A DNA stretch of 41,727 nt. It comes from a virus (lineage: Duplodnaviria > Heunggongvirae > Uroviricota > Caudoviricetes). Position 1 is the first letter of the stretch; every line of letters begins with the position of its first letter. Position numbers and translations under genes: made by a program. Below the pieces are notes generated by a model. It saw nothing but the letters and a program-made list of their open reading frames with translations, was not told the origin of the DNA and ran no database searches. The stretch lies in the IMG/VR virus record IMGVR_UViG_3300045993_000138. One strand, 5' to 3'. Shown here piece by piece: positions 1,264 through 41,661 of the stretch.

Positions 1264-1599
1264 ATGGGCGCATATTCAGACCTTTGCATCGATCAAGGGA
1301 CCGATTTCGAGACAGATTTAGACCTTATCGCGGATGACGGAACCACGATAAATGTGCATGGCTACGTCTTCAATGGTCAAATTCGAAAGGCTTATACATC
1401 AGCAAATACTAGTGCATCTTTTTTATTCAATACTGCTGATGCCAACAATGGTAATGTAACGGTTTGGATGGATAGTGCTAATACAGCAAACATTCCATAC
1501 GGTCGTTACGTATATGATATAAAAATGACAGATTTGCGTAATATAACAACCAGAGTTGTCGAAGGAATTCTAACAATCAATCCGAGCGTTTCAAGATGA
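1264..1599 (+). CDS. Small virion structural protein, possible fibre adaptor
   Basis: Pattern IDQGTDF...GQIRK...GRYVYDI...RVVEGILTINPSV recalled from structural genes of environmental T4-like phages. Follows a late promoter. Confidence 0.6.
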   Translation: MGAYSDLCIDQGTDFETDLDLIADDGTTINVHGYVFNGQIRKAYTSANTSASFLFNTADANNGNVTVWMDSANTANIPYGRYVYDIKMTDLRNITTRVVEGILTINPSVSR

Positions 1600-1835
1600 A
1601 AGTAGTTCTTTCAAACAAGTCCAAAGTTGGTCTTGGGAAAGTTGTTGTTGATACGCATAACAAAATCGCCAAAGTCAATTTTACCAAGGCTCCAGTGGCA
1701 GGACCACTTGGCTTAGGAGATCTTAATAATGTGAATGTATCTGGTCAACGTAACGGAGATGTTCTAGTATTTAATGCAAATACTAATTCTTACATCATTG
1801 AGACTCTTCCAGATATTGATGGTGGAATATTCTAA
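1596..1835 (+). CDS. Small fibre-associated structural protein
   Basis: ATGA overlap with the upstream gene. LGDLNNVNV...NGDVLVFN fibre-type motif and terminal IDGGIF. Confidence 0.55.
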   Translation: MKVVLSNKSKVGLGKVVVDTHNKIAKVNFTKAPVAGPLGLGDLNNVNVSGQRNGDVLVFNANTNSYIIETLPDIDGGIF

Positions 1836-1838
1836 ACC

Positions 1839-4800
1839 ATGACTCAGAACACAATCATTCAGATAAAAAGATCTACCGCTAATGCTGCACCAAATTCTCT
1901 TGCATATGGTGAACTAGCATATTCTTTTGCGGCTAACACTCTTTACATCGGTGATTCAAATTCTGTTCCAGTTCAAGTAGCATCGACAGTCGAGGTTGTC
2001 GGTGATGCCTATGACACTGCCAACAGTGCAGCCAACACTGTTTCTGTATATCAAGACGGTGCGAATGCACTATATGCACAACATCTAAATTTTAGAAATA
2101 CATCTTCCATAGTTGTAAGTGTGGTTCCAGGGTCTGGACCATTCTCTGGAAATGCAAATATATCCTTTGATTATATCGGAGCAGTTCAGGGAACCACAGG
2201 AGCGCAAGGTACTCAAGGTACTTCTGGAGCGCAAGGTGTATTTGGTACTCAGGGTGTTACTGGTGCGCTACAAGCATGGGCATTAAAGACTGCTGATTAC
2301 ACTGCCGTCGATGGTGATAGAATCATTGCAGATACTTCATCTGGTTCATTCACTGTAACACTTCCATTAAATCCAACTAGTGGTGCATATATCCAAATTA
2401 CCGATGGTAATATGTGGAGTGCAAATAGTTTGTTCATTGCAAGAAATGGTTCTACAATAGAACACATTTCAGATGACATGAGAATTGATATTACCGGAAT
2501 TACTGTCGAACTTATTTTCAACGGTAATCCATCTGTTAATACTTGGGAAGTAACTGCAACCACTGGTGTTCAAGGTGTTCAGGGACCAACTGGTTCTGGC
2601 GCACAGGGAACTCAAGGTGCTGGTTCACCAGGAACTCAAGGATCACAGGGAACTCAGGGTGCCGGGACGGCAGGTACACAAGGTGTTCAAGGTCGAGCAG
2701 GATCTGCACAAGGTACACAAGGTACTCTTGGTGTAACAGGTTCGCAAGGTATAACTGGTGCAGGAGTACAAGGCGTTCAAGGTACTATCGGTATTCAGGG
2801 AACCATTGGCACTCAAGGTGTTCAGGGTCTTACTGGTTCTGGTACTCAAGGATCACAAGGAACTCTCGGCACACAAGGATCCATTGGATCACAAGGTGTT
2901 CAGGGTCTTACTGGTTCTGGTACTCAAGGAACGCAAGGCGTTCAGGGAATGCAAGGAACTCAGGGCAGACAAGGCACTCAAGGTGCAACTGGTGCTGGAG
3001 TACAAGGTACTCAAGGAACTCTAGGAACTATTGGTACACAAGGAACACAAGGTCTTACAGGTGCGGGTACACAAGGTACTCAGGGAACTATTGGTACACA
3101 AGGTTTACAAGGTACATTTGGAACACAAGGTCTTACTGGTTCTGGAACACAAGGTGTTCAAGGAACTCAGGGTGCTGGAACTGCTGGTACTCAAGGAACT
3201 CAGGGTGCAACTGGAAGTGGTTCACAAGGCACTCAAGGAACTCTCGGTGTTCAAGGATTTACTGGAACAGGAATACAAGGCACTCAAGGTGCAACTGGTG
3301 CTGGTGTACAAGGAACACAAGGGACTCTAGGTGCGACTGGATTACAAGGAACTCAGGGTCTTACCGGAACTGGATCACAAGGAACGCAAGGTGTTCAGGG
3401 TGAAAAGGGAACACAAGGATCTCAAGGAACTCTTGGAGTTCAGGGACTCACTGGAACAGGTTCACAAGGAACACAGGGTTCTCAAGGAACTCTTGGAACA
3501 ACCGGAACACAAGGCACTCAAGGTGCAACTGGTGCAGGAACACAGGGAACTCAAGGACTTACAGGAACTGGTTCACAAGGTGTTCAAGGACTTACTGGAA
3601 CTGGTTCGCAGGGAACACAAGGTGTTCAAGGTGAAAAGGGAACTCAAGGCACACAAGGAACACTTGGAACCACTGGTTCTCAAGGCACACAAGGAACATT
3701 AGGTACCTCTGGATCGCAAGGATCGCAGGGAACTCTAGGAGCAACAGGATCGCAGGGAACTCAGGGTCTAACTGGTGCAGGAACACAGGGAACTCAAGGT
3801 ACATTAGGTTCTTCTGGATCTCAAGGAACACAAGGACTTATTGGAACTGGCTCACAAGGTGTTCAAGGAACACAAGGTGCTGGTACTGCCGGTACACAAG
3901 GAACACAAGGTCTTACTGGTTCTGGTACACAAGGAACACAAGGAACACAGGGAACTCTAGGTGCGACTGGATTACAAGGAACTCAGGGTCTTACCGGAAC
4001 TGGATCACAAGGTGTTCAGGGAACTCTTGGAACAATTGGTTCGCAAGGTACTCAGGGTTTAACTGGTGCAGGAACACAGGGAACTCAGGGTGCGGGTTCT
4101 GTAGGAACTCAAGGTACACAAGGTGCTATTGGATCACAAGGTCTAACTGGAATTCAGGGATCACAAGGTGTCCAAGGACTTACTGGTGCGGGAGTGCAAG
4201 GAACTCAGGGTACACTTGGATCAACAGGATCTCAAGGAACTCAGGGTCTTACTGGAACCGGAACTCAAGGTCTACAAGGAACACTTGGAACAACTGGATC
4301 GCAAGGTGTTCAAGGAACTCTAGGTGCAACTGGATCTCAAGGTACTCAGGGAACATTGGGTGCTACTGGTTCACAGGGAACTCAAGGTCTTACAGGAACT
4401 GGTACACAAGGCACTCAAGGTCTTACAGGAACTGGTACACAGGGAACTCAAGGATTGACTGGAACTGGAACACAAGGTGTTCAAGGAACACTCGGTGTCT
4501 CTGGATCACAAGGTACTCAAGGTCTGACTGGAACAGGAACACAAGGTACCCAAGGAACAATTGGTGTAACAGGTTCGCAAGGAACTCAGGGTACAACTGG
4601 AACTGGAACACAAGGAACTCAAGGTCTAACTGGAACCGGATCACAAGGCGTTCAAGGTGCAACTGGTGCAGGAGTGCAAGGAACACAAGGTCTGACTGGA
4701 ACTGGTTCACAAGGAACACAGGGTGTTGCTGGTGCAGGAACTCAAGGTGTTCAAGGAACAACTGGTGACACCGGATCACAAGGCACTCAAGGTGCGTCTG

Positions 4801-6461
4801 GAACTGGATCACAAGGATCACAAGGAACTCAGGGTCTGACTGGAACCGGAACACAAGGAACTCAAGGTCTAACTGGAACCGGAACACAAGGAACTCAAGG
4901 TCTAACAGGTGCAGGAACACAAGGAACACAAGGTCTGACTGGAACTGGTTCACAAGGAACACAGGGTGTTCAGGGTCGTATAGGAACACAAGGACTTACA
5001 GGTGCAGGTACCCAAGGCACTCAGGGTACAATTGGAACCGGAACACAAGGTACTCAAGGTGCAACTGGTGCAGGAACACAGGGAACTCAAGGTCTTACTG
5101 GAACAGGATCACAGGGTGTTCAAGGTGTTGCCGGTGCAGGAACACAGGGTGTTCAAGGAACTGTAGGAGGTGTCGGACCTAGTGGAAACGTTGTTCCATA
5201 CGCAGACGCAACTGGTACAGATACGATCACTGCAACTTACAGTCCAGCACTGGCATCATTGTATGATGGGCTGTTCGTACTATTGGATTCGGCAGGAAAC
5301 AATACTACAACTACACCAACATTCAATCCAAATGGACTCGGTGCTAAAACCATTACGAGAGATGATAATACTCCACTAGTTGTTGGTGATACCGGACCAA
5401 CTGGTTATGTAATGCAACTAGTTTACAACACTGTTTCTGGTGGTACTTGGAGATTAATGAATCCAGAATTTACGGATGCGTCCGGTAATACAAACGAAAT
5501 TCAAATTAATTTTGGTGGAGTTCTTGCTGGAGATCCTGATCTTACTTTTGATACTGGAAATAATATTCTAATAATCGGAAAGACTGGATCATCTCTTAAT
5601 ACTGGTATCAACTTATATGCAGCAAACACGCAGCCACCAACTCCAGCAACAAATACTATAACATTATTCGGAAGGAGTATTGCAGGAAGAGTGTTACCAT
5701 CTTGGGTTGGACCTTCTGGATTAGATTCACCAGTACAACCATTTTTTGGTCGTAATCATGTCGGATATATGCACTGGACTGGAAACGGAACTGGTGCTGC
5801 AAACACTATTGGTATTTTACCTCCTACAATGGCAGGAACTGCAACCGCAAGAACCGTATTGGCAACCACTTTATATCATTCACTAAGACGTATTGGATAT
5901 CTTTCAACTGCCGTTGCTGGTGGTGCATGTTCATTGCGTGTTGCTACAGCAAGTTGGTTGAGAGGAAACACTACTGGTCAAGGCGGATTTACTTTCGTTT
6001 CACGTTTTGGAATTTCTGATCCAGCACCAGTCACAAATGCAACGATGTTAATTGGACTTTCTGCAACTACTACTGCATTGTCTAACACTAACAATCCATT
6101 GACAATTCAAAATTTTATTGGAATTGGTCAGGTACCAAGTTCTAACAATCTTTCTATCATAGGAAATGCAACAAACACTAGTGCTCTTATCATAGACACT
6201 GGATTACGTTGCAACGTAGGAAACGTAAACGTTTGGGATTTTTCGATGTTCGCTGCCCCAAACTCAAATACAATCGGAATTCAAATTATGGATATGACTA
6301 ATCCTACATTGAATACGTATTCTACGGTGTTGTCAAATACTGGTGTGAATATGCCATTCGGAAATACATTGTTAACAGTACAACAATTCAGAACAAATAA
6401 CTCTGCTGCTCAGGTTGTAGGATTGGATTTCATCAGTTTGTATATTGAAACTGATCTATAA
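1839..6461 (+). CDS. Collagen-like fibre protein, 1540 aa
   Basis: N-terminal IQIKRS...LAYGELAYS...LYIGD attachment-type domain. KTADYTAVDGDRIIADTSSGSFTVTLP domain resembling T4 gp9/gp34-type repeats. GTQ/GSQ/GVQ repeat at about 2560-5185, then a globular C-terminal region. Confidence 0.85.
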   Translation: MTQNTIIQIKRSTANAAPNSLAYGELAYSFAANTLYIGDSNSVPVQVASTVEVVGDAYDTANSAANTVSVYQDGANALYAQHLNFRNTSSIVVSVVPGSGPFSGNANISFDYIGAVQGTTGAQGTQGTSGAQGVFGTQGVTGALQAWALKTADYTAVDGDRIIADTSSGSFTVTLPLNPTSGAYIQITDGNMWSANSLFIARNGSTIEHISDDMRIDITGITVELIFNGNPSVNTWEVTATTGVQGVQGPTGSGAQGTQGAGSPGTQGSQGTQGAGTAGTQGVQGRAGSAQGTQGTLGVTGSQGITGAGVQGVQGTIGIQGTIGTQGVQGLTGSGTQGSQGTLGTQGSIGSQGVQGLTGSGTQGTQGVQGMQGTQGRQGTQGATGAGVQGTQGTLGTIGTQGTQGLTGAGTQGTQGTIGTQGLQGTFGTQGLTGSGTQGVQGTQGAGTAGTQGTQGATGSGSQGTQGTLGVQGFTGTGIQGTQGATGAGVQGTQGTLGATGLQGTQGLTGTGSQGTQGVQGEKGTQGSQGTLGVQGLTGTGSQGTQGSQGTLGTTGTQGTQGATGAGTQGTQGLTGTGSQGVQGLTGTGSQGTQGVQGEKGTQGTQGTLGTTGSQGTQGTLGTSGSQGSQGTLGATGSQGTQGLTGAGTQGTQGTLGSSGSQGTQGLIGTGSQGVQGTQGAGTAGTQGTQGLTGSGTQGTQGTQGTLGATGLQGTQGLTGTGSQGVQGTLGTIGSQGTQGLTGAGTQGTQGAGSVGTQGTQGAIGSQGLTGIQGSQGVQGLTGAGVQGTQGTLGSTGSQGTQGLTGTGTQGLQGTLGTTGSQGVQGTLGATGSQGTQGTLGATGSQGTQGLTGTGTQGTQGLTGTGTQGTQGLTGTGTQGVQGTLGVSGSQGTQGLTGTGTQGTQGTIGVTGSQGTQGTTGTGTQGTQGLTGTGSQGVQGATGAGVQGTQGLTGTGSQGTQGVAGAGTQGVQGTTGDTGSQGTQGASGTGSQGSQGTQGLTGTGTQGTQGLTGTGTQGTQGLTGAGTQGTQGLTGTGSQGTQGVQGRIGTQGLTGAGTQGTQGTIGTGTQGTQGATGAGTQGTQGLTGTGSQGVQGVAGAGTQGVQGTVGGVGPSGNVVPYADATGTDTITATYSPALASLYDGLFVLLDSAGNNTTTTPTFNPNGLGAKTITRDDNTPLVVGDTGPTGYVMQLVYNTVSGGTWRLMNPEFTDASGNTNEIQINFGGVLAGDPDLTFDTGNNILIIGKTGSSLNTGINLYAANTQPPTPATNTITLFGRSIAGRVLPSWVGPSGLDSPVQPFFGRNHVGYMHWTGNGTGAANTIGILPPTMAGTATARTVLATTLYHSLRRIGYLSTAVAGGACSLRVATASWLRGNTTGQGGFTFVSRFGISDPAPVTNATMLIGLSATTTALSNTNNPLTIQNFIGIGQVPSSNNLSIIGNATNTSALIIDTGLRCNVGNVNVWDFSMFAAPNSNTIGIQIMDMTNPTLNTYSTVLSNTGVNMPFGNTLLTVQQFRTNNSAAQVVGLDFISLYIETDL

Positions 6462-6488: not shown

Positions 6489-9400
6489 ATGACATTTCCA
6501 ATCGAGCAAGTATTAGCCAGCCAATTACCTCCCGGCGCACAAGGTGTGCAGGGTGTTCAAGGTATTGGAGCGACTGGTGCACAAGGTATTGCTGGATCTG
6601 GTATCGTAATCAAAGGAAGTGTTCCAACATTTACTTCACTTCCTGGATATCCAAGTTCTTATGTTGGTTCTGCTGGTGATTCTTACATCGCAATTGACAA
6701 TGGACATCTTTGGGTTTGGAGTGGATCTCTTTGGGTTGATGGTGGAAACATCTCAGGTCCACAAGGCGCACAAGGATCCATTGGACTGACTGGATCACAA
6801 GGTGTTCAAGGTGCAATTGGAATTCAAGGTTTCACTGGAACTCAAGGAGCATTTGGTACACAAGGTGCAGTCGGCGCACAAGGTACACAAGGCACTGTTG
6901 GTTCACAAGGATCTCAAGGAACATTTGGTGTACAGGGTTCAGTTGGAACACAAGGTTCTGTTGGATTGCAAGGAACTCAGGGAACAACAGGTTCACAAGG
7001 TCTAACTGGTACCCAAGGTTCATTCGGCACGCAGGGAACACAAGGCACTCAAGGTGCGACTGGATCACAAGGATCGCAGGGTACAACTGGAACACAAGGT
7101 TCGTTCGGCACACAAGGCACTCAAGGTGCAACAGGATCACAAGGAACTCAGGGAACAACAGGATCTCAGGGATCTCAGGGTGTTCAAGGTTCATTAGGTG
7201 TCACAGGATCACAAGGTACTCAGGGAACTGTTGGATCACAGGGAACCATTGGTACTCAGGGAACACAAGGTGTCCAAGGTGAAAAGGGAACACAGGGAAC
7301 TGTTGGTTCACAAGGAACATTCGGAACTCAAGGATCACAAGGTGTTCAGGGTGAAAAAGGAACACAGGGAACTCAGGGCACATTAGGTGCAACTGGTTCT
7401 CAAGGTATTCAAGGAACTCTTGGAACAACAGGTTCACAAGGTTCACAAGGAACTCAAGGTGCTGTAGGATCTCAAGGAACAACTGGTTCACAAGGATCTC
7501 AAGGTGTCCAAGGTGAAAAAGGAACTCAAGGTCTACAAGGAACACTTGGCACTCAAGGTATCGTTGGTTCACAAGGATTACAAGGAACACTTGGAACACA
7601 AGGTCTTACTGGATCTGGTACACAAGGAACACAGGGTACTATTGGATCACAAGGTCTGCAAGGAACATTCGGAACACAAGGTCTTACTGGAACTGGCGCA
7701 CAGGGTGTTCAAGGAACTCTTGGTGTTCAAGGTATTCAAGGAACACAAGGTGTTGGAACTCCCGGTACACAAGGTATTCAAGGAACACAAGGTGCGGGTA
7801 CTGCCGGTACTCAAGGTACACAAGGTGCAACAGGTGCAGGTTCTCAAGGTACACAAGGAACACTAGGTTCTACTGGATCACAGGGAACACAAGGTCTAAC
7901 TGGATCTGGAACTCAAGGTACACAAGGAACCTCTGGTGTTAATGGTTCACAAGGATCACAAGGTCTAACTGGAACTGGTACACAAGGAACACAAGGTCTA
8001 ACTGGTACTGGAACTCAGGGCACACAAGGGACTCTTGGTGTTCAGGGTCTTACTGGAACGGGAGTACAAGGAACACAAGGTGCAGGTTCTGTAGGCACAC
8101 AAGGGTCGCAGGGAACATTCGGTATTCAAGGAACTCAGGGTGCCGGAACTGCTGGTACACAAGGTGTTCAAGGAACTCTAGGTTTACAGGGAACACAAGG
8201 TGCTGGATCTGCCGGAACACAAGGAACTCAGGGCACATTAGGTGCAACTGGTTCACAAGGAACTCAGGGTGTTCAAGGTGAAAAGGGAACTCAAGGATCA
8301 CAAGGTGTTCAAGGAACACTTGGAGCAACTGGTTCACAAGGTGTGCAGGGTACATTAGGTGCAACAGGATCACAAGGTGTGCAGGGTATTCAGGGTGAAA
8401 AAGGAACCCAAGGTACATCTGGTTCACAGGGAACTCAAGGTTTAATTGGTCCGACTGGTGGTGCCAATACTCAAATATTGTTTAACAATAATGGTATTGC
8501 CAATGGATCTCCATATCTAACATATAACATTGCATCAAACACCATGACATTTGGTGATAAAGCATTTTTCCAGAGTTCTGGGGCAACCGATTATTCATTG
8601 GGAATTTATGGCGCTCTAAAAGTTGGATTAACTATTCCACCAAATGATGCACCAACCAACGTAAATGATATAGAAATTAGTTATGATTATATTGCTAGTA
8701 CTACTGATACTGGAATAGCAAATTTCAATCTAAGAGGTCCGGGTGGGATCGGTAATGCTACTGGTCAATCATACATGAATTTCAGTGTGAATAGCACGGT
8801 TGGAATGTCCCTTTTTGGTGGCGCAGTAATATTTCCAGGATCATTCTCTGCTGCGACTGGATCTTTCACAGTAGAACCTTCTGTAACTGGTCCAGCACTC
8901 ACATTATATGAAACAAATTATGCTGGTCCACCAAATAATTTAAACACCACATATCCGTGGATGATCAACAAGTATGAAATGATCACAGTGCAGAATGGTT
9001 CTGCTACATTCTATTTCGATGGTTCTGCTGCCAATACAGCACCAGTAAATATTTGGAATGATACTCTCGGAACTGGTATATCCAGATTCTTAAATTTCTA
9101 TGTTGCTGCACAAGGCGCACAAGCGGGTTGGAATATTGCAGCGGGATATATCGGAGCAAACTCAAGAAACTTTACACAGTTACAGGTAAGCGGTAATAGT
9201 GGTGTTGCCTTGATGGCAAACGGAAACTATGTACTGAACGTTTCTGCAACTGGCGTCACGATAAAGACTGTATCTGGAACTGGAACTGCACTTACAGTTA
9301 CTGGTAATACTTCGACAGGAAATCTTCTTGCAACTACTGGTGTTGTAAATGCAAAAACGTTCGTGACTGTTTCTGGAATGGATCTTGCTAACTCGATTAA

Positions 9401-12400
9401 TACAGCAGCGAACAGTGTATCGGTATCTTCGAATGGTGGATCTACTCTCAATAACCAATCACTAAATTTCGTTAACACTGCTACAGTATCAGTTGTCGTA
9501 AGTTCTGGTGTTTCTGGAAATGCAAATATTGCGTTCAGTGTCATTGGATCTGCACAAGGTACAACAGGTTCGCAGGGAATGCAAGGTGTTCAGGGTGTCA
9601 AGGGTAATGATGGAACATCTATCAACATTAAGGGTTCTGTTCCAACTGCCAATGCTTCGAACTTCGCAGCAGCCGATCCTTCTCCAACTCTTGGTGATGG
9701 ATATATTGCAACAGACACAGGACATTTGTGGACATATACTGGAAGTGGTCCTGTTGGTGGATTCACAGACGCAGGAAACGTAACCGGACCTCAAGGTACG
9801 ACTGGAACAAATGGATCTCAAGGAACACAGGGTGGGGTTGGCACACAAGGTTCGCAAGGTGTTCAAGGTGAAAAAGGAACTCAGGGTACCCAAGGTACAA
9901 TTGGAACTAATGGTTCTCAGGGCACTCAAGGAACAATTGGATCACAAGGTCTAACTGGAACACAAGGCACTCAAGGTTCTGTTGGTTCACAGGGATCACA
10001 AGGTGTACAGGGGACAATTGGAACTCAAGGTGTACAGGGAACACTAGGAGCAACTGGTTCACAAGGCACTCAAGGAACACTTGGCGCTACAGGATCTCAA
10101 GGTTCACAAGGAACTCTAGGTGCAACTGGATCGCAAGGAACACAGGGATTACAAGGAACTCTAGGTTCACAAGGAACACAGGGCACACTTGGAGCAACAG
10201 GTTCTCAGGGTTTGCAAGGTGCAAGTGGATCTCAAGGTTTAACAGGATCTCAAGGTTCACAAGGTACTCAAGGATCAACTGGTTCACAAGGTTTACAAGG
10301 AACAATTGGATCTCAAGGTCTAACTGGAACACAGGGATTACAAGGATCGCAGGGAGTTCAAGGAACTCTAGGAACCACTGGATCACAGGGAACTCAGGGC
10401 ACAATCGGTGCGACTGGAACACAAGGCACTCAAGGCACACTTGGTTCGCAAGGTCTAACTGGAACACAAGGATCACAAGGAATTGTTGGCTCACAAGGAA
10501 CACTAGGATCACAAGGAATTGTAGGATCACAGGGTCTACAAGGAACACTTGGAACTCAAGGTATTCTAGGATCACAGGGAACTCAAGGTACATTCGGAAC
10601 TCAAGGTACTGTAGGATTACAGGGTACACAAGGAACACTTGGAACTCAAGGATTACAAGGAACTCTTGGTGTACAAGGTCTAACTGGAATACAGGGTGTC
10701 CAAGGTACACTCGGAGTAACTGGTTCTCAAGGATCTCAGGGGACTGTTGGTTCTCAGGGTACGCAAGGAACATTAGGTGCCACGGGGTCACAAGGCACAC
10801 AAGGAACTATTGGATCACAGGGAACTACTGGTACTCAGGGATTACAAGGAACTGTAGGTTCGCAAGGAACGATAGGTTCACAAGGATCTCAAGGTGTTCA
10901 AGGTTCATTAGGATCAACTGGAACTCAAGGTTCTCAGGGTACATTTGGTACTCAAGGTTCTCAGGGTGTTCAAGGTGAAAAGGGTACTCAAGGATCGCAA
11001 GGAACACTTGGTGCAACTGGTTCTCAGGGCACTCAAGGAACTATTGGATCACAGGGATTACAAGGAACACTAGGTTCTCAAGGAACCACTGGATCACAGG
11101 GAACACAAGGTGTACAAGGAACTCTAGGTGCTACAGGATCTCAGGGAACACAAGGAACACAAGGAACCATTGGATCACAAGGAACCACTGGTACTCAAGG
11201 TTCGCAAGGTGTTCAAGGTGAAAAAGGAACTCAGGGAACACAAGGCACATCTATTCAAGGTACACAAGGTACTCTTGGTGTACAAGGTATGCAGGGTGTC
11301 CAAGGTGTTAAAGGTAATGATGGAACATCTATTAATATTAAAGGTTCCGTTCCAACTGCTAATGCTCCTAACTTCGCTGCTGCCGATCCTTCTCCAGTTT
11401 TAGGTGATGGATTCATTGCAACAGATACTGGTCACTTGTGGACATATACGGGAACTGGACCTGTTGGTGGATTTGCAGATGCTGGTAACGTCACTGGTCC
11501 TCAAGGTACAACCGGAGCAACTGGATCACAAGGTACGCAAGGAACTGTTGGTACTCAAGGTTCGCAAGGTGTTCAAGGTGAAAAAGGAACTCAGGGCACT
11601 CAAGGAACAATTGGTGTAACAGGTTCACAAGGAACACAAGGTACTCTAGGATCACAAGGTTCTGTTGGAACACAGGGATCACAAGGTGTCCAAGGTGAAA
11701 AGGGAACTCAGGGATCTCAAGGTACACTTGGAGCAACTGGAAGTCAAGGTACCCAAGGAACTTTGGGAACTACAGGATCACAAGGTACACAAGGAACAAT
11801 TGGAGTCACTGGATCACAGGGTACACAAGGTACTCTAGGAGCTACTGGTTCTCAAGGATCACAAGGTGTTCAGGGAACTCTTGGTGCCACAGGATCACAA
11901 GGTACACAAGGCGTCCAAGGTGAAAAAGGGACTCAAGGTTCACAAGGAACTCTTGGTACAACTGGTTCTCAGGGTACACAAGGAACACTTGGAACAACTG
12001 GATCTCAGGGTACACAAGGTGTACAAGGTGAAAAAGGAACTCAAGGTTCACAAGGAACTCTTGGTACACAAGGTACCGTAGGAACTCAAGGATCACAGGG
12101 AACTTTTGGTTTACAAGGTACACAAGGTCTTGTCGGTCCTGTTGGTGGCGCAAATACTCAGATCATATTCAACAATCAAGGTTCACCTGCCGGTTCTATA
12201 AATTTAACATTTAATGTTGCAACAAATACATTTGCAACTTATAATTCTAACACTTATGGCATACATGTCGTTGGAAGTATTATTCCAGATGTATCGTATG
12301 CCACTTCATTTACAACTAACCCAGGTACAATATATTATAGTGATTCTCAGACTAGTGTATGGAATACAGCATTCAAGTATTGGGCTAGTGGAAATAATTT

Positions 12401-17761: not shown

Positions 17762-17762
17762 A

Positions 17763-25344: not shown

Positions 25345-25347
25345 ACA

Positions 25348-25704: not shown

Positions 25705-25709
25705 AAGCA

Positions 25710-26144: not shown

Positions 26145-26150
26145 TACGGA

Positions 26151-26570: not shown

Positions 26571-26582
26571 GATTCGGAGTTT

Positions 26583-28111: not shown

Positions 28112-29113
28112 ATGCTTTCGAATCAACATTTCTATCACAGAACAATCAGACGCAACGTTATTGCGTTTGGTACGCTATTCAAGCACATTCAGATGTTGAC
28201 CTATGACAAGGATACAACCACTGAAATCGATAGAATCACAGTCCCTCTGAGTTATGCTGGTAAGGAAGACTATATTACCAGACTCTATGCCAACCCCGAT
28301 CTTCACAAAGAAACTCAGATAGATCTTCCAAGAATGTCATTTGAAATGACTGACATTTCCTATGACTCATCTAGAAAACTTTCATCGTATCTGAGTTCAT
28401 TCAGCCAGATTCCAGGTCAGGCTGGAGCATATCAACAGTACATTGGAACTCCATACAATCTAGGATTTGAACTGAGTCTCTACATTCGTAATGTGGAAGA
28501 TGGCACTCAGATTGTCGAGCAGATTCTTCCGTACTTCAATCCAGACTATACTCTTTCGATGGTGTTCGTAGACAGCATGGGCATTTCTAAAAACGTTCCT
28601 ATCATTCTTGAGTCCGTCAGATACGATCCAAATTACCAAGGAGCGGCAGATAGTGCCACCAGAATTCTGACTTGGACTCTATCGTTCAAGATGAAGACGT
28701 ACTTCTTCGGACCTATCAATTCTGGATCTATCATCAGAACTGCCACTGCAAACACATACCTCTATAATACGTCGCATTTGGATAATATCGAAATGTTACT
28801 AAATCCTAATGGAACTGGAAATTTCAGACTCGGAGAAACGGTATATCAGGGAAGTTCACTTCCAGATGCCACTGCAACGGCAGATGTACTCGCATGGGAC
28901 AGCATATCTGGAAAACTCATTGTGACAAACACCGTAGGAAACTTCCATGCAAATGCAAATGTACATGGCACCATAAGCAGTGCGTCTCATAATGCCAATA
29001 CCATAATAACTCAGACCAAGTTACTTGACACTATCGTTATTACTCCAAATCCACTTAATGCCAACTTGAATGATGACTTCGGATTTACGGAAGTAAATAC
29101 TGAGTATGTATAA
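28112..29113 (+). CDS. gp15: Tail sheath stabilizer/terminator gp15 with an extra C-terminal domain
   Basis: FYHRTIRRNVIAFGTLF, VPLSY, LPRMSFEM, QIVEQILPYFNP and WTLSF...YFFGP motifs. Confidence 0.93.
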   Translation: MLSNQHFYHRTIRRNVIAFGTLFKHIQMLTYDKDTTTEIDRITVPLSYAGKEDYITRLYANPDLHKETQIDLPRMSFEMTDISYDSSRKLSSYLSSFSQIPGQAGAYQQYIGTPYNLGFELSLYIRNVEDGTQIVEQILPYFNPDYTLSMVFVDSMGISKNVPIILESVRYDPNYQGAADSATRILTWTLSFKMKTYFFGPINSGSIIRTATANTYLYNTSHLDNIEMLLNPNGTGNFRLGETVYQGSSLPDATATADVLAWDSISGKLIVTNTVGNFHANANVHGTISSASHNANTIITQTKLLDTIVITPNPLNANLNDDFGFTEVNTEYV

Positions 29114-29121: not shown

Positions 29122-29580
29122 ATGGAAATAGTTAATAATACACTTGCAGAAACTTTTGATGTGGAACCCCAACAACAGCCACAACCTGTTGTGGTGTTAG
29201 AATCCAATCCAGTTGTCACCACTACAGTTGGAAACGAAGTGGAAAATGATGCCACATATGCCAGAGACTCAATATACAATGTTCTCGAAAAAGGTCTAGA
29301 GGCTATCAACTTCACTATGGATGTTTTGAAAGAAACACAACATCCTAGATGTGCCGAAGTTCTCGGTCAGTTACTAAAGATTCAATCAGACAACACAGAC
29401 AAGTTATTGAAAATTCAAAAAGATAGAAGAGAACTTGTTGATAGTGGAAGCGAAAGATCTGGTGATGTTAACATCGATAAGGCAATTTTTGTCGGCAGTA
29501 CTCATGAATTGCTCAAAATGATCAAGAATGAACAGGAAAAACAGATATCCGATGACTCTGTAGTATCAGATGGCAAGTAA
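29122..29580 (+). CDS. gp16: Terminase small subunit gp16
   Basis: D..YAR, HPRCAEVLGQLLK and AIFVGSTHELLKM motifs. Lies directly before gp17. Confidence 0.9.
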   Translation: MEIVNNTLAETFDVEPQQQPQPVVVLESNPVVTTTVGNEVENDATYARDSIYNVLEKGLEAINFTMDVLKETQHPRCAEVLGQLLKIQSDNTDKLLKIQKDRRELVDSGSERSGDVNIDKAIFVGSTHELLKMIKNEQEKQISDDSVVSDGK

Positions 29581-33068: not shown

Positions 33069-33593
33069 ATGATTTCATACACATACTTAATAGGTTGGTC
33101 AGAACACCGTAAATTTTATTACGGTGTTCGCTATTCTAAAAAAAGTAATCCTAGTGAATTATGTAAGACATATTTTTCTAGTTCAAAGTATGTTAAGGAA
33201 ATGATAAAAAATCATGGTGTTCCCGATATACAAGAAGTCAGAAAGATTTTTCCGAATGTGAATTCGGCTAGAAAGTGGGAGCATAAAGTTCTTAGAAGAA
33301 TGAAGTGTGTTCAAAATATTGATTGGTTGAATAAAACAGATAATATTTCTATATCACCAGATGCTGCTAAATATGTTCATACAGATGCTACTCGTTTGAA
33401 AAAGTCTATTTCCCATAAAGGAAAAGTTCATACTGCGGAAACTAGAGCGAAAATAAGTGCTGCTCAAAAAGGAAAGCCTAGAGAGTATTTAAAAGGTATA
33501 AAACGTCCACAACATTCATCTTTAATGAGTATCAAGATGAAAGAAATTTGGGCAAATAGAAAGTCCAATATATCAGGAGAATTATTAAAATGA
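33069..33593 (+). mobile_element. Free-standing GIY-YIG-like (Seg-type) homing endonuclease with NUMOD3 repeats
   Basis: YTYLIGW...FYYGVR...YFSSS, ARKWEHKVL and WLNK catalytic-domain pattern, with HKGKVHTAETRAKISAAQKGK NUMOD3. More AT-rich than its flanks. Confidence 0.82.
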
Positions 33594-34168
33594 GCTTTAA
33601 CGTTAACGATTTTAGACAACAGATTGTAGGTGACGGTGCCCGTCCTAATCTATTCGAAGTTCGCATGAACTTCCCAAGCTTTGCGGCACAGGGTGATGTA
33701 AATCGTAAGATTTCATTCTTCTGTAATGCAGCGCAGTTGCCGGGATCCACTATTGGTCTTACACCAGCATTCTACTTCGGTCGCGAAGTCAAGCTAGCCG
33801 GTAATAGAACCTTTCAAGAGTGGAACATTTCTATTATGAACGACGAAGATTTCGTTGTTCGTAACGGATTTGAGCGTTGGATGAACGGAATGAGTGATCC
33901 AGTATTCAACGTTCGTGCAGCAAGCGCAGCAGTGGTAGATGGAGGGTATGGTGTTAACGCAACTGTAATTCAGTACGGCAAGAAAGGCGATGTTATCAAG
34001 ACATACGATTTCGTTGGAATGTTCCCAATTGATATTCAACCAATTGATTTGAGTTGGAGTCAGAACGATACCATCGAAGAATTCCAAGTAACACTCGCAG
34101 TTCAGTACTGGACTTCACAGCAGAATACCTCCGCATTGGGTGGAGTTGTTCGCGGTCTATTGGGTTAA
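33590..34168 (+). CDS. gp19: Tail tube protein gp19
   Basis: GARPNLFEV, AAQLPGS, GREVKLAGNRTFQEW, NDEDF.VR..FERW, FP..I..IDLSW and IEEFQVT motifs. Confidence 0.96.
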   Translation: MSFNVNDFRQQIVGDGARPNLFEVRMNFPSFAAQGDVNRKISFFCNAAQLPGSTIGLTPAFYFGREVKLAGNRTFQEWNISIMNDEDFVVRNGFERWMNGMSDPVFNVRAASAAVVDGGYGVNATVIQYGKKGDVIKTYDFVGMFPIDIQPIDLSWSQNDTIEEFQVTLAVQYWTSQQNTSALGGVVRGLLG

Positions 34169-34177
34169 TGATTGGCA

Positions 34178-34205
34178 GGGGAGAGAACATTTTCGTTCTC
34201 TCCCC
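34178..34205 (+). terminator. Perfect 11-bp hairpin between gp19 and gp20 (weak terminator or RNA-stability element)
   Basis: GGGGAGAGAAC-ATTTTC-GTTCTCTCCCC, followed by ATATAATA rather than a U-tract. Confidence 0.6.
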
Positions 34206-34226
34206 ATATAATATGGAGAAACTATT

Positions 34227-35831
34227 TTGGCTCAATTAAAGTTATTCGGATTTAAGCTTGTCAGGGATGATGAAGAAGAAACTCTACCATCAGTCGTAAC
34301 GCCACAAGTCGAAGATGGTGCTATCAATATCCAGACTGGCGCACACTACGGAATTTACGTAGATCTGGATGGTTCTTACAGAACCGAAGTTGATCTAATC
34401 ACAAAGTATCGCACAATGGCAATGCAGCCAGAAATCGAACAGGCTGTGGAAGATATCATCAACGAAGCAATTGTCCATGATAAGCATGGCAATGTTGTAA
34501 AGATCGTTCTAGATGGTCTTGATCTTCCAGATAGAATCAAAGGAATGATTCGTGACGAGTTCACGACAATTCAAAGACTTCTAGATTTCAATAATTTTGG
34601 TTCAGATATTTTCCGTCGTTGGTATGTTGACGGCAGACTATACTATAACGTAGTCATTGATAACGACAATCCAAGAGCAGGAATTCAACAGCTAGTCTAT
34701 ATTGATCCTCGCCGCATTCGTAAGATTCGTAATATTAACAAGTCCAAGAAAGATGGTGTTGATATCGTTGACAAGATTGAAACATTCTATCTCTACAATG
34801 AGAAGATGGTCAACAACAATGTCCAGTCTCCACAGATTCTTGGTAACTACGCAGGTGGTATTAAACTATCAGATGATTCTGTAGTTCACCTTTCTTCTGG
34901 ATTATATGATCCAGCAAAGTCCACAGTACTTTCATACATTCATAAGGCAATACGCCCTATGAATCAGTTGCGCTTCGTTGAAGATGCAACCGTTATCTAC
35001 CGTGTTTCTCGCGCACCAGAACGTCGCGTGTTCTACGTTGACGTAGGTAACATGCCTAAGATGAAGGCAGAACAATACCTCAAGGACATCATGACTAAGT
35101 TTAGAAATAAGCTTACCTATGATGCTTCCACAGGTGAAATACGTGATGACCGCAAGCACATGTCGATGTTGGAAGATTTCTGGATGCCTCGCCGTGGTGA
35201 AGGTAAGTCTACAGAAATCACAACACTTCCTGCCGGTCAAAACCTCGGTCAGATGGATGACGTATTTTACTTCGAAAAGAAGCTTTACAAGGCACTCAAT
35301 GTGCCAATTTCGAGACTTGAAGCAAGCACTGGATTCTCGTTGGGACGCACCAATGAAATCACCCGCGATGAACTCAAGTTCGATAAGTTCGTAGACAAGC
35401 TTCGTTCAAGATTTTCCATTCTATTCGATGAACTACTGGCTCGTCAGCTTGCCCTCAAGGGCGTCTGTACATTGGATGAATGGAATCAATTCAAGCAGCA
35501 AATTCACTATGATTACATCAAAGACAACAACTTCACAGAACTCAAGGAAGCTGAACTTCTACAGGGTAGAATGCAGACTCTCGTTCAGGTTGAACCATAC
35601 ATCGGAAGATTCTATTCCAAGCGTTGGGTTCAGGAAAACATCCTGCAATTGAACGAAGATGAAATCGAAAAGATGAATGAGCAAATGGATGAAGAAGCTG
35701 CTATGGCACCACAACCAGAAATGGGCACTCCAGAAGAAGAAGAGCCTGATGGTGGTGGGCAAGGAAAGCAGGGTGACGACAAAGAAGATATAAATAAAAA
35801 GGTATCTAAATTGTTCGGAAATCAGCAATAA
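34227..35831 (+). CDS. gp20: Portal protein gp20 (TTG start)
   Basis: KLFGF, FRRWYVDGR, EDATVIYRVSRAPERRVFYVDVGNMPK.KAEQY, MLEDFWMPRRGEGKSTEITTLP and ITRDELKF motifs. GGAG RBS before the TTG. Confidence 0.97.
   Translation: MAQLKLFGFKLVRDDEEETLPSVVTPQVEDGAINIQTGAHYGIYVDLDGSYRTEVDLITKYRTMAMQPEIEQAVEDIINEAIVHDKHGNVVKIVLDGLDLPDRIKGMIRDEFTTIQRLLDFNNFGSDIFRRWYVDGRLYYNVVIDNDNPRAGIQQLVYIDPRRIRKIRNINKSKKDGVDIVDKIETFYLYNEKMVNNNVQSPQILGNYAGGIKLSDDSVVHLSSGLYDPAKSTVLSYIHKAIRPMNQLRFVEDATVIYRVSRAPERRVFYVDVGNMPKMKAEQYLKDIMTKFRNKLTYDASTGEIRDDRKHMSMLEDFWMPRRGEGKSTEITTLPAGQNLGQMDDVFYFEKKLYKALNVPISRLEASTGFSLGRTNEITRDELKFDKFVDKLRSRFSILFDELLARQLALKGVCTLDEWNQFKQQIHYDYIKDNNFTELKEAELLQGRMQTLVQVEPYIGRFYSKRWVQENILQLNEDEIEKMNEQMDEEAAMAPQPEMGTPEEEEPDGGGQGKQGDDKEDINKKVSKLFGNQQ
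35789..35796 (+). promoter_or_regulatory. T4-type late promoter inside the 3' end of gp20, serving the prohead core genes
   Basis: Exact TATAAATA 56 nt upstream of ATG 35853. Confidence 0.75.
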
Positions 35832-37699: not shown

Positions 37700-38152
37700 A
37701 TGGCAGCAAATGCACCAGAAGTACAAGTAATATTCGATAACGGACAGACTGCCAGAGTCAAAGTTACCGCATATTTCACGGGAGCAACAACTTCCAACAC
37801 AACCATTGTAAGAGCCAACACACTTGCATTTGCGAACACATCAAAGAGTTCCAACGTATGCTCGTTGAGTATCTCACAGGTTCAGTTTGCATCAGACCTT
37901 GCAGGATTCGCTCAGTTGTATTGGGCAGGGGCGAGTGCAAATACTCCGATTTACAATTTCGGAACATCACATGCCGGTACTCTTGATGCATATGTTCAGA
38001 ACAATGCAACTGGTCCTACTGGTGAACTTGGATTGTGGATCAATGCTGCTGCAAACTTAGATACACTGGATCTAATTATTACTATTAACAAAGAAGCTGG
38101 TTATGCTAATGCGTTCATTGAATACAATGATAATAGATATGTCGGTGGCTAA
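37700..38152 (+). CDS. Virion structural protein, possibly exterior
   Basis: AGGA RBS. Ala/Asn/Thr-rich beta-type composition, unlike the charged core proteins on either side. Confidence 0.55.
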   Translation: MAANAPEVQVIFDNGQTARVKVTAYFTGATTSNTTIVRANTLAFANTSKSSNVCSLSISQVQFASDLAGFAQLYWAGASANTPIYNFGTSHAGTLDAYVQNNATGPTGELGLWINAAANLDTLDLIITINKEAGYANAFIEYNDNRYVGG

Positions 38153-38432: not shown

Positions 38433-39077
38433 ATGAAGCTTATTAAAGAAACAATTGAAGAAGTCAAGTATCTCACCGAAGATGTCGGTGGCGTAAAGAC
38501 TCTCTTTATTCAGGGACCATTTTTGGTTAGCGAAAAGGCTAATCGTAATGGTAGAATATATGCTCGTAACCTTCTTGAGAGAGAAGTCAAGCGTTATAAC
38601 GAAGAATACGTAAACAAAAATCGTGCTTTTGGAGAACTTGGACATCCAGAAACACCAGCAATTGGATTAGAGCGTGTATCACATCTAATCACCAACCTAA
38701 GACAAAATGGTAACGTTTTTGAAGGTAAGGCAAAGATTCTTGATACTCCAATGGGTCGCATCGCAAAAGGTATTATCGAAGGCGGTGGATTGCTTGGAGT
38801 ATCATCAAGAGGAATGGGATCATTGAAGGCTATCAATGGTATTAATCATGTTCAGGAAGATTTCTATCTAGCCACAGCGGCAGATATTGTAGCTGACCCA
38901 TCAGCACCGGGTGCGTTTGTTGAAGGAATAATGGAAGGCAAAGAATGGGTGTGGGACAACGGAATCGTAAAAGAAGCCGATGTCAATTACCTACAGCAAA
39001 CCATTAAGAAAGCAAGAGCAAAGCAACTGGAAGAAGTCAAGCTACGCGCTTTTGAGAATTTTATCTCAAAATTGTAA
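38433..39077 (+). CDS. gp21: Prohead protease gp21
   Basis: NRNGRIY, GELGHP (catalytic His), LDTPMG, GVSSRGMGS (catalytic Ser) and DIVADPSAPGAFV motifs. Confidence 0.97.
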   Translation: MKLIKETIEEVKYLTEDVGGVKTLFIQGPFLVSEKANRNGRIYARNLLEREVKRYNEEYVNKNRAFGELGHPETPAIGLERVSHLITNLRQNGNVFEGKAKILDTPMGRIAKGIIEGGGLLGVSSRGMGSLKAINGINHVQEDFYLATAADIVADPSAPGAFVEGIMEGKEWVWDNGIVKEADVNYLQQTIKKARAKQLEEVKLRAFENFISKL

Positions 39078-39080
39078 TTT

Positions 39081-39088
39081 TATAAATA
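39081..39088 (+). promoter_or_regulatory. T4-type late promoter for gp22/gp23
   Basis: Exact TATAAATA. TAAGGAG RBS precedes ATG 39113. Confidence 0.88.
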
Positions 39089-39112
39089 AAGATATAACTA
39101 AGGAGTTTACTC

Positions 39113-40258
39113 ATGAAAGTTCGAACATTAGCAGAAGCTGCCGCTGACGTACTCGCAAAGTCTAGAGCCGCTGCGCCTTCAGAACCAATGCCATCCATTG
39201 GTGCAGAAGTCGTAGATCTTGGCGGATCTACACAGACCGATCCATCAGGCGGCGACGTTGGTTCCCGTGCCGCAGCAGCGGTCGGAACAGCAACACCACC
39301 AGGCACTCCACCAGCAGCCGATTCAAAGGAAGGAATGAAGAAGCTTGCACAGGAAGAAGCCGAAGTGTCAGAAGATGACGTTGAAGGTACTGAGACTATT
39401 GCAGAAGATGAAGTCGAAGACGAAGAAATCTTCGAAGAAATGACTGCCGAAGAAGTCGAAGCTGCATATGCAGCAAAGGTCGCAATGCTTAAGGAAAAGC
39501 TTGCTGCTCTCGGTTCTAAGGAAGATATCGATGCAATCTTCTCTGGCGAAGAACTTTCCGAAGAGTTCCGCACCAAGGTTTCCACCATTTTCGAAGGTGC
39601 CGTTATTGCTCGCGCAGTACAGGTTATCGAAGAAATGGAATCAGAAATTCTTGCTGCTGCCGAAGAGACAATTGAAGAAGTTAAGCAAGAACTTGAGGAA
39701 CAGGTTGATACCTACCTCAACTATATGGTTAACGAATGGGTACAGGAAAATGAAGTTGCCGTTGATTCTGGTCTAAAGACTGAAATCATGGAAGAATTCA
39801 TGGCTGGACTCAAGAATCTATTTGCTGAACATTATATCGACGTTCCAGAAGAGAAGGTAGATGTACTAGAAGCTATGGCTGAAGAAATCGATGAACTCAA
39901 GGGTAAGTTGAATGAGTCACTAAATGACAACATCAGCCTTGCACTTGCAATCACCGAAGCTCGTAAGGCTGAAATAATTGCATCAGTTTGTGAGGGACTC
40001 ACTGCCACACAATCTGAAAAGGTAAAGACTCTCGCAGAGGGAGTTGAGTTCACCACAGAGGGTGAATATGAAGGAAAGATCAAGATAATTCGTGAGAGTT
40101 ATTTCAATCAGACCGCAAGTGATACAAAAACAGTGAAACAGGCTTCCAATCCAATTGCCATTACAGAAAGCGCGGAACCTGTTGTAACATCAAATGGAGA
40201 TGTATCTCCATCGATGGATAGTTATGTTAAGGCACTCTCTAGAACCAACCCAGTATAA
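39113..40258 (+). CDS. gp22: Prohead core scaffold gp22
   Basis: Acidic coiled-coil with ELSEEF..K..TIFE, VDTYLNY..NEW..EN, GLKNLF.EHYIDVPEEKVDV and IRESYF motifs. Confidence 0.93.
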   Translation: MKVRTLAEAAADVLAKSRAAAPSEPMPSIGAEVVDLGGSTQTDPSGGDVGSRAAAAVGTATPPGTPPAADSKEGMKKLAQEEAEVSEDDVEGTETIAEDEVEDEEIFEEMTAEEVEAAYAAKVAMLKEKLAALGSKEDIDAIFSGEELSEEFRTKVSTIFEGAVIARAVQVIEEMESEILAAAEETIEEVKQELEEQVDTYLNYMVNEWVQENEVAVDSGLKTEIMEEFMAGLKNLFAEHYIDVPEEKVDVLEAMAEEIDELKGKLNESLNDNISLALAITEARKAEIIASVCEGLTATQSEKVKTLAEGVEFTTEGEYEGKIKIIRESYFNQTASDTKTVKQASNPIAITESAEPVVTSNGDVSPSMDSYVKALSRTNPV

Positions 40259-40296
40259 TAAGGGTTTTTACTTAAAATCATAGAAGGATTATAAAA

Positions 40297-41661
40297 ATGT
40301 ATCTCTCAGAAACAATTCAAAAGAAGTGGGCACCAGTATTGGACCACGCTGATATGGCTAAGATCACTGACCCATATCGCCGTGCCGTTACTGCGATTGT
40401 CCTAGAAAATCAGGAACGCGCTCTTCGTGAAGAAGCAGGTATCCTTGCAGAAGCTGGTGGATCCAACTTCGTAGGCGCGGGCGGATATGGTGGTGGAGCA
40501 ACTGCTGGTGGTCCAGTAGCCGGTTTCGATCCAATCCTAATCAGCCTAGTTCGTCGTTCACTACCTAACCTAATGGCATATGACATCTGCGGCGTTCAGC
40601 CAATGACTGGTCCAACAGGTCTTATCTTCGCGATGCGCTCAACCTATGCTAACGCAACAAGCGCAGCACTAGGATCAGCAACTCCAGAAGCGTTCTACAA
40701 CGAAGCAAACGTATCATTCTCTGGTACTGGCGCAACATCACCATTCACTGCGGGTAACAACCCTGATGCGAACGTTAACCCAGGTACAAGCAATGCTTCT
40801 ATCTTCGGTCTAGCGAACACTGGTGAAGGATTCGACACCGGAACTGGTGAAGGTCTATCCGTTGGTACAACAATGAACCAGATGGGCTTCTCAATCGAAA
40901 AGGTTACTGTAACAGCAAACACCCGTGCGCTAGCAGCATCCTACACCCTAGAACTTGCACAGGACTTGAAGGCAGTTCATGGTCTAGACGCAGAAACGGA
41001 ATTGGCAAATATTCTTTCAACAGAAGTTCTTGCTGAAATCAACCGTGAAGTCGTCCGCACCGTGTATGCAACTGCAAAGCCGGGCGCAGCGTTCTCCAAC
41101 ACACCGGGCGTATTTAACCTAGCAACAGGTCTAGATACAGATGGTCGTTGGCAGGTAGAAAAGTACAAGGGTCTTATCTTCCAGATCGAGCGTGAAGCTA
41201 ACAAGATCGCGAAAGATACTCGTCGTGGAAAGGGCAACATCATCATCACATCAACCGATGTGGCATCAGCCCTTGCGATGAGCGGACTTCTTGACTACAA
41301 CTCAGCACTAAGCAACAACACTGGTCTACAGGTTGACGACACTGGAAATACCTTCGCAGGTGTTCTATTCGGTCGCCTAAAGGTCTATGTTGATCCATAC
41401 TCAGTATCAGGCGCAGATTATGTCGTCGTCGGATACAAGGGTGCGGTCGCGTATGATGCTGGTCTGTTCTACTGCCCATACGTTCCTCTACAGATGGTTC
41501 GTGCAATCGATCCTAACACCTTCCAGCCAAAGATTGGCTTCAAGACCCGTTACGGAATCGTTGCAAATCCATTCGCACAGGGAACCACACAGGGTTCAGG
41601 CGCATTGAGCAACAACAGCAACCTCTACTACCGCAAGTTTATCGTAAGCAACTTGAAGTAA
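40297..41661 (+). CDS. gp23: Major capsid protein gp23
   Basis: KKWAPVL, FDPILISLVRR..PNL.AYDICGVQPMTGPTGLIFAMR, ELAQDLKAVHGLDAE.ELANIL, AGLFYCPYVPL and FQPKIGFKTRYG motifs. Confidence 0.98.
   Translation: MYLSETIQKKWAPVLDHADMAKITDPYRRAVTAIVLENQERALREEAGILAEAGGSNFVGAGGYGGGATAGGPVAGFDPILISLVRRSLPNLMAYDICGVQPMTGPTGLIFAMRSTYANATSAALGSATPEAFYNEANVSFSGTGATSPFTAGNNPDANVNPGTSNASIFGLANTGEGFDTGTGEGLSVGTTMNQMGFSIEKVTVTANTRALAASYTLELAQDLKAVHGLDAETELANILSTEVLAEINREVVRTVYATAKPGAAFSNTPGVFNLATGLDTDGRWQVEKYKGLIFQIEREANKIAKDTRRGKGNIIITSTDVASALAMSGLLDYNSALSNNTGLQVDDTGNTFAGVLFGRLKVYVDPYSVSGADYVVVGYKGAVAYDAGLFYCPYVPLQMVRAIDPNTFQPKIGFKTRYGIVANPFAQGTTQGSGALSNNSNLYYRKFIVSNLK

Follow-up and report, generated by a model that had tools for sequence, protein, structure and literature searches.

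The stretch of DNA analyzed here (41,727 nucleotides of IMG/VR record IMGVR_UViG_3300045993_000138; hereafter the window) is the neck-tail-head block of a T4-like phage of 178.7 kb, located on the minus strand at G000:C1:112381-154107 of a genome (G000) with a completeness rating of 95%. A simple custom caller predicted 256 genes in this genome, which were labeled g000-g255 in our analysis, and protein identities were taken from Pfam and PHROG scans. Wetland and peat metagenomes are the four best holders of the phage sequence among holders not flagged as its possible source, with sequencing-run shares <0.2 left out. The block encodes fibre and appendage proteins, the neck, sheath, and tube proteins, the terminase, and the head proteins. 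Two elements are considered below: the dipeptide Ala-Asn (AN), which is in excess in outer virion proteins of this phage, and g065, a predicted glycosyltransferase gene outside the window that is the candidate writer of a modification at these pairs.

The Ala-Asn excess is real. The AN expectation was computed for each protein from its own composition, with collagen-like runs removed, and counts are given as observed/expected. In the structural block of 46 proteins, AN occurs 180 times compared to 98.6 expected (z 8.2), placing it at the top of all 400 dipeptides, and 131 was the highest count reached in 900 local-window shuffles. The remaining 210 proteins of the genome contain 93 pairs compared to 115.9 expected. 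The reverse pair, Asn-Ala (NA), is unremarkable in the structural block at 94, as are Ser-Asn (SN), Gly-Asn (GN), and Thr-Asn (TN) at 1.11, 1.0, and 0.79 of expectation, and A-x-N stands at 92/98.2. The hexamer GCNAAY is found 107 times in frame 0 and 1 and 8 times in the other sense frames, and the AN codons are mixed. The signal therefore lies at the protein level, and a DNA-level motif is ruled out. An initial annotation of the window, made from its letters and translations, had named simple Ala/Asn bias as the main alternative and proposed composition-corrected counts of AN, SN, and GN; of these, AN alone is well above expectation, and the bias is excluded. An artefact of composition or DNA could draw on the repetitive nature of open reading frame (ORF) 26151 and the fibre modules, and on the AN of gp23, conserved in most homologues. 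However, the per-protein expectation, the shuffles, the frame test, and the mixed codons have already refuted it, as has an AN ratio >1.2 in 80/80 related baseplate loci fetched with gp8 (1.23-3.03; loci not dereplicated), and its probability is negligible.

The pair has a marked preference at the following position, with ANT at 34/8.4, ANI at 20/5.4, ANA at 22/7.3, ANV at 17/6.1, and ANS at 16/7.4. The overlap with N-x-S/T sequons pointed out in the initial annotation is no greater than for other asparagines, as Ser or Thr occupies +2 in 35/156 AN sites (22%) versus 147/723 other Asn (20%); the sequon is not enriched overall (234 versus 225). At +3, Thr is outside the seven commonest residues in 176 AN contexts. 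Two relatives differ at the preceding position: the cultured phage Cr30 has SNT at 30/6.4, and genome G029 has SN at 1.70, which suggests a drift between Ala and Ser in the residue preferred at −1.

The AN excess is restricted to outer virion proteins when whole classes and domains are compared. In the outer, fibre, inner, and head classes, which are our own assignment, the outer baseplate, neck, and sheath have 66/30.0 (~2.2-fold) and the fibres and appendages 83/40.4, compared to 14/15.3 for the inner tail and hub, 4/9.4 for the head interior and packaging proteins, and 14/18.8 for putative internal head proteins. Each single-protein zero expects only 0.2-1.5 pairs, so only the pooled contrast counts. 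All AN counts per protein given earlier were reproduced (gp18, gp23, gp14, gp15, ORFs 37700, 1264, and 26151, the zeros, and the two of the terminase), including five in the C-terminal extension of gp15, a protein with six in total. The accompanying claim that AN follows surface exposure holds at the class and domain level, outer against inner. Residues 86-265 of gp18, a variable insertion, are presumably the outer domains, by reference to the T4 structure. In ORF 26151 (139 amino acids (aa), fibre/appendage), with AN 9/2.1, an internal repeat inflates the count. The 150-aa protein at 37700..38152 may be an outer head or decoration protein.

Table 1. Features of the window (positions within it) and the candidate writer gene; AN as observed/expected or observed count
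Feature	Position	Strand	Description
Small fibre-associated protein (phrog_1084/3304, LtfC-like)	1264..1599	+	111 aa; AN 4 vs 0.9
G-x-Q collagen-like fibre	1839..6461	+	1540 aa; 9 AN, globular modules
G-x-Q collagen-like fibre	6489..17069	+	3526 aa; 21 AN, globular modules
gp13 neck adaptor	18987..19745	+	Inner class; AN 2 vs 1.1
gp14 neck	20394..21158	+	AN 5/1.3; all 5 in C-terminal extension beyond Pfam domain, residues 142-254
Fibre/appendage genes	21161..28081	+	718, 337, 330, 118, 144, 139, 305, ~193 aa; AN 8, 6, 4, 4, 1, 9, 2, 1
gp15 sheath terminator	28112..29113	+	AN 6/1.5; 5/6 in C-terminal extension
gp16 and gp17 terminase	29122..31294	+	Control class; AN 0/0.4 and 2/2.3
gp18 sheath	31356..33065	+	AN 11/5.0; 8/11 in variable insertion, residues 86-265, expected 2.4
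gp19 tube and gp20 portal	33590..35831	+	Control class; AN 0/1.1 and 0/1.2
Protein of no known family	37700..38152	+	150 aa; AN 6/2.6
gp21 protease and gp22 scaffold	38433..40258	+	Control class; AN 1/1.1 and 0/1.5
gp23 major capsid	40297..41661	+	AN 8/3.7
g065, candidate writer	G000:C1:99061-99858 (L006:4064-4858)	minus	265 aa; 12.6 kb downstream of gp23, outside window

The capsid protein gp23 does carry the eight AN sites counted in the initial annotation, yet is a weak witness. Four sites are common to 43-69 of 79 homologues, while the other four (N119, N159, N174, N208) are lineage-variable; the K-to-N change in TVTANTRALA is found in 6/79 homologues. Owing to the conserved sites, AN is ~2-fold in excess in almost all gp23 homologues, and the protein was rejected as an AN marker. 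As the evidence for the capsid shell is weak, the signal is mainly one of tail, neck, baseplate, and fibres. Any coat, which had been proposed for the whole particle, would mainly concern these parts.

The A-N combination is selected as a pair, with turnover of its sites. In the baseplate proteins gp7, gp8, g015, and g016, 60-74% of AN lies in columns common to ≤20% of sequences; the value for gp6 is 39%. Across adjacent columns of families dereplicated to 17-38 sequences each, A-N has a within-column odds ratio of 2.09, first of 49 pairs, in keeping with the selection on the motif suggested in the initial annotation. T4 and cyanophages have no AN excess. A scan with Cr30 gp6 obtained only 2 loci.

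Modeling predicts that g065 is a glycosyltransferase of the GT-A fold (predicted local distance difference test (pLDDT) score 78). A DxD motif follows its fourth-strand region, and D82 and D84 are invariant in 56/56 aligned close homologues. Its Anp1 match is weak and below the Pfam cut-off, and its sequence has no match in the PDB. The top match in Foldseek and in a wide VIA search is A197 of the archaeal virus STIV (PDB 2c0n; Z 16.7, root-mean-square deviation 2.9, 162 aligned residues, 18-20% identity), and other structural matches are LH3 (Z up to 17.3), mimivirus R699 (16.2), COLGALT1, and Mnn9. Among viral models, g065 matches Q98454 of chlorovirus PBCV-1 (E 1.9e-11, TM 0.63/0.72) and an SFV1 glycosyltransferase. 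Q98454 is an uncharacterised protein of 227 aa and a candidate for chlorovirus capsid-glycan synthesis. The modeled fold similarity of g065 to STIV A197 and to this PBCV-1 orphan points to an enzyme family that viruses share across hosts from all three domains.

Matches to g065 occur in 64 of 50,697 phage records. The T4-like matches, at 40-55% identity, are in DLP6, Cr30, OC, the phiM12 group, and RHph_I1_18, in each of which the gene is just upstream of clamp gene 45; the Cr30 orthologue is AGS81028. In IMG/VR, ~2,100 stretches match, the best 80 at 70-99% identity, and 12/13 partial contigs with gp45 also carry g065. Of 15 longer homologues scanned, nine have matches to both intein and LAGLIDADG families, and one has LAGLIDADG alone. 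The inteins of the family (P0121-P0245) are full, include LAGLIDADG endonucleases, and occupy at least two sites in many homologues; they are read as a sign of an essential gene. Two homologues, P0155 and P0175, are fusions in which a PLOD GT domain comes first. A small podovirus (MW202691 27027-28304, L392) has a distant g065-like gene between coat and tail accessory genes.

When the full set of 256 proteins was compared with 11 genomes that are whole or largely so, only g065 and a divergent tail-tube-like gene were present in each of the seven clade genomes while missing from pf16, BUCT-ZZ01, Melnitz, and HTVC008M. A Pfam scan shows that the phage encodes many sugar enzymes outside the window, and g065 is the only sugar gene common to all AN-positive whole genomes and absent from 4/4 negative ones. 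The initial annotation had proposed a test for a co-occurring enzyme gene; this predicted glycosyltransferase gene is one, though with only two independent phylogenetic contrasts behind the link. The only additions from a phmmer pass were g129 and g139, and AN-negative BUCT-ZZ01 has both. Other sugar genes (g083-085, g093, g114, g121-123, g127, g074) are absent from the four cultured AN-positive genomes and are therefore not the shared writer. Variable sugar sets are located at L005:12555-14705, L005:4285-5265, and L003:13046-19778, with GT2, DUF7796-like, a GT25-like tandem, a GH130-like propeller, TPR-GT17-like, and NDP-sugar dehydratase genes; most are shared with genome G002 and absent from cultured relatives.

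The cultured phages Cr30, phiM12, DLP6, and RHph_I1_18 have both g065 and an AN(T) excess. In a test of 11 g065 carriers and 14 non-carriers, the outer-protein AN ratio was 1.08-2.23 (median 1.77) for carriers and 0.53-1.55 (median ~0.97) for non-carriers, and the ANT ratio was 1.84-6.11 and 0-4.38, respectively. ACG-2014f and AG-345-L05, which have 25-30% g065-like genes and no AN excess, were scored as non-carriers, a choice favoring a role for g065. Three AN-positive partial contigs in which no g065 was found (G004, G008, G025), none of which shows its replication block, were excluded. On the same host, the AN ratio differs between DLP6 (1.82) and Marzo (1.02). Six small phages with g065-like genes, considered as a further independent contrast, have AN 173/124.0, with NA also at 150/124.0 and no matched control. 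Collagen G-x-Q repeats were rejected as the g065 substrate, being absent from Cr30, phiM12, RHph_I1_18, OC, and G003.

We assign a probability of about 0.5 to the explanation that AN pairs are the acceptor motif for a phage-encoded Asn glycosylation of the virion exterior, carried out by the predicted GT-A enzyme g065. The enzyme would be produced with the replication genes, and hence be present during late-protein translation. In the host cytoplasm, it would transfer a sugar from a host or phage nucleoside diphosphate (NDP)-sugar to the Asn amide in A-N-(T/I/V), probably on newly made late proteins. Outward positions would tolerate or gain AN sites, and interfaces and interior proteins would avoid them. 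Variable genes (GT2, GT25-like, GT17-like, two NDP-sugar dehydratase/epimerases, and a methyltransferase) might extend the first sugar into lineage-specific glycans. Beyond co-occurrence and fold, the explanation is inference, including that g065 acts on protein and that Asn is the acceptor. The purpose is a matter of speculation and could be protease resistance, stability, anti-adsorption, or solubility in humic water. A wider claim is tentative, with the odds somewhat against it: a deep T4-like branch, of thousands of freshwater contigs and the four cultured phages, may N-glycosylate tail, baseplate, and fibres at Ala-Asn-(Thr/Ile/Val) with a core GT-A enzyme, which would represent a new class of soluble Asn-glycosyltransferase related to STIV A197 and PBCV-1 Q98454.

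Several observations weigh against Asn glycosylation by g065. At an excess of two-fold, roughly every second AN pair is background. Two carriers lack a clear excess, OC (25/23.2) and G029 (8/6.8, in 1,381 residues only), and the non-carrier phiM9 reaches 15/9.7 (1.55), with NA (1.65) and inner proteins (1.71) raised too. On a tree of nine genes, the carriers fall into a single clade. On a second tree, of five inner-protein genes, g065 presence requires 2 changes. Since only 2 independent pairs result, the rank test (p 1e-4) is phylogenetically invalid and the co-occurrence is statistically inseparable from shared ancestry. The uncharacterised g129, with no Pfam match, is in 5/5 AN-positive whole genomes as well as in BUCT-ZZ01. 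In the structural comparison, the best match within LH3 is to residues 284-533, which we take to be a non-catalytic accessory domain, and generic GT-A enzymes trail the best matches by only 2-3 Z units. The setting of g065 is one of replication genes, with gp45 ≤3 kb away in 71/80 loci and a deoxynucleoside monophosphate (dNMP) kinase in 58/80. A late-promoter core precedes g065 in 1/69 distinct sequences; in the studied genome, this core is found at 12 genes, nearly all structural. Lastly, DLP6 DNA is tabled as restriction-resistant in the accessible part of a review (PMC8228603); in passages of the original paper, the sentence on the restriction result is incomplete (PMC5349666).

The excess could instead reflect a structural preference of the lineage, with Asn capping beta-strand starts, forming ladders, or lying in coiled-coil cores of fibre stalks, and g065 co-inherited. 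In a gp8 model (mean pLDDT 88.7), AN sites are in coil (6/11), in strands (4, of which 2 are the first strand residue), and at a helix end (1), and the fibre modules repeat an AN-x-AAN-TV unit; the two independent contrasts and the OC exception fit this view as well. However, a fold requirement would be equal among phages sharing the fold, and carriers and non-carriers differ. For A-N coupling, the odds ratio of 10 g065 carriers is 1.83 (rank 1), compared to 1.02 (rank 18) for 14 non-carriers, and in a homologous G-x-G-Y beta module, AN is 144/66.3 in 150 clade instances (IMG/VR loci taken as carriers by assumption) and 8/10.5 in 36 from outsiders. The excess in non-fibre outer proteins alone, the shift of sites between columns, and NA, SN, GN, and TN near or below expectation also argue against a structural origin, and we consider it unlikely.

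A little less likely again is that AN is an enzyme or binding tag read by something other than g065, be it a host enzyme, a g129-like phage protein, or a non-sugar chemistry. The evidence for selection on the pair does not depend on any enzyme, g129 accompanies the excess in the whole genomes, and OC keeps g065 with no excess. On the other side, the hosts of AN-positive phages span Caulobacter, Sinorhizobium, Rhizobium, and Stenotrophomonas, and Marzo on S. maltophilia is negative; g129, which lacks a Pfam match, is also present in AN-negative BUCT-ZZ01. The hydroxylase suggested in the initial annotation as an alternative to a glycosyltransferase gains no support, as the 2-oxoglutarate (2OG) oxygenase family PF13640 is absent from the studied genome and from 6/7 other g065 carriers searched (1/8 carriers in all has a match, as does AN-negative S-SM1). 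A search with PF05118 (AspH-type) matched no control. PF18071 (HMW1C/GT41) has no match in 5 genomes or in any control, and no HMW1C/GT41 or STT3 Pfam match was found among 104 proteins of ≥120 aa outside the window.

A further possibility is that g065 glycosylates DNA or a nucleotide, or else a molecule of the host surface, and coincides with the AN clade through shared ancestry. The neighboring gp45 and dNMP kinase genes, the lack of a late promoter, and the DLP6 restriction resistance are consistent with a DNA target. Inteins, frequent in g065 homologues, are common in DNA-metabolism genes. However, PF00303 (thymidylate-synthase family, dCMP/dUMP hydroxymethylase) and PF13640, potential sources of a hydroxylated base, are both absent from G000, G001, and G002, while T4 and S-SM1 controls were matched, and a clamp-binding C-terminal tail is present in 0/270 g065 family members. 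Together these results weaken the DNA target, and the closest folds act on proteins or glycoproteins; a role of g065 on any of these other targets is improbable. PF12851 (TET/JBP) had no match anywhere, controls included.

Viral enzymes that glycosylate Asn outside the classic sequon have been described for PBCV-1, whose capsid protein Vp54 is modified at sites of the type NTGT, NTET, NTAT, NIPG, and NVAT, as stated in the accessible portions of three papers (PMC9614988, PMC5408694, PMC7826918). Vp54 sites have Thr, Ile, or Val at +1, and ANT, ANI, and ANV are 3-4-fold enriched here; the model of g065 also matches PBCV-1 Q98454. Chlorovirus sites may also have a small residue at −1. In contrast, PBCV-1 is a eukaryotic virus with proven chemistry, a beta-Glc-Asn linkage and a branched core glycan, on one capsid protein, whereas here a modification of many tail proteins is predicted. 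If our explanation holds, the phage system would operate in the manner of chlorovirus virion glycosylation. Since the chlorovirus N-T-x-T pattern has no counterpart in a Thr excess at +3, the present system is not counted as a member of chlorovirus-type glycosylation. STIV A197, like g065 a minimal stand-alone viral GT-A fold, is required by STIV, and capsid protein B345 is its proposed target, with the substrate unproven, according to the part of the source available (PMC10551542). It differs in belonging to an archaeal virus, and its donor and acceptor are unproven, with no known acceptor motif.

Phage-encoded glycosyltransferases glycosylate virion proteins in mycobacteriophage Che8, as reported by Freeman and colleagues in 2023 and cited in the part of PMC11256854 available. 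Such phages differ from the present one in being siphoviruses of actinobacteria. The mycobacteriophage glycans are O-linked to terminal Ser. We know of no proteome-wide motif for this glycosylation. HMW1C/ApNGT (GT41) enzymes, which have a GT-B fold, perform soluble transfer from NDP-sugar to Asn in the bacterial cytoplasm. This cytoplasmic transfer resembles that proposed for g065, but the sequon is not enriched here and the candidate is GT-A. HMW1C-type enzymes recognise N-x-S/T, going by the title of a reference cited in PMC9614988. PLOD/LH3, COLGALT1, and mimivirus R699 are the closest fold group to g065 (Z 15-17), and two g065 homologues are the PLOD fusions noted above. These enzymes act on hydroxylysine. 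The G-x-Q repeats do not track g065.

The accessible parts of PMC13326640, PMC7139368, and PMC12801897 contain nothing on g065 or virion glycans, and the literature searched, with most subscription papers outside the search, yielded no description of Asn-linked virion glycosylation or of an AN motif for T4-like phages. Phage virion glycosylation has been documented for few phages only. If our explanation is correct, a very abundant freshwater phage clade would have a glycan-coated tail, a small soluble enzyme, and a sequon unlike N-x-S/T, of interest to phage ecology, structural virology, and glyco-engineering. Under the wider, more tentative claim, Q98454 could in turn be put forward for a step of capsid-glycan synthesis in chloroviruses, perhaps even formation of the Asn linkage. 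The proposal is directly testable, since four cultured phages carry the motif and the gene.

Other features of the window and genome were observed. The collagen-like fibres at window positions 1839-17069 and 21161-23317 are very long and built of GTQ/GSQ/GVQ without Pro-rich triplets; G-x-Q repeats are found in G001, G002, and G004 and not in cultured relatives. The ORF at 18257-18952 (AN 0/0.2) has an RSGST motif and is inside the fibre block, beside orphan ORF 17730-18260. This motif presumably resembles the 3′-phosphoadenosine-5′-phosphosulfate (PAPS) loop of sulfotransferases, but the label of sulfotransferase given earlier found no backing in a Pfam or PHROG match. Homing-endonuclease-like ORFs follow gp13 (19690-20271) and gp18 (33069-33593). 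Outside the window, the ribonucleotide reductase at L004:1226-4233 comprises two ORFs with intein-like ends and an HNH gene between them. Pfam matches above cut-off were obtained for the anti-defence proteins Tad3 (Thoeris inhibitor) and Acb3 (CBASS inhibitor), at L002:4313-4825 and L002:2916-3575. On the minus strand at L001:13042-16076, a multiheme cytochrome c gene (256 aa) adjoins an HD-domain gene and the gene of a TPR protein of 562 aa whose C-terminus is barrel-like, and the cytochrome c/TPR pair resembles a phage-borne outer-membrane electron conduit pair.

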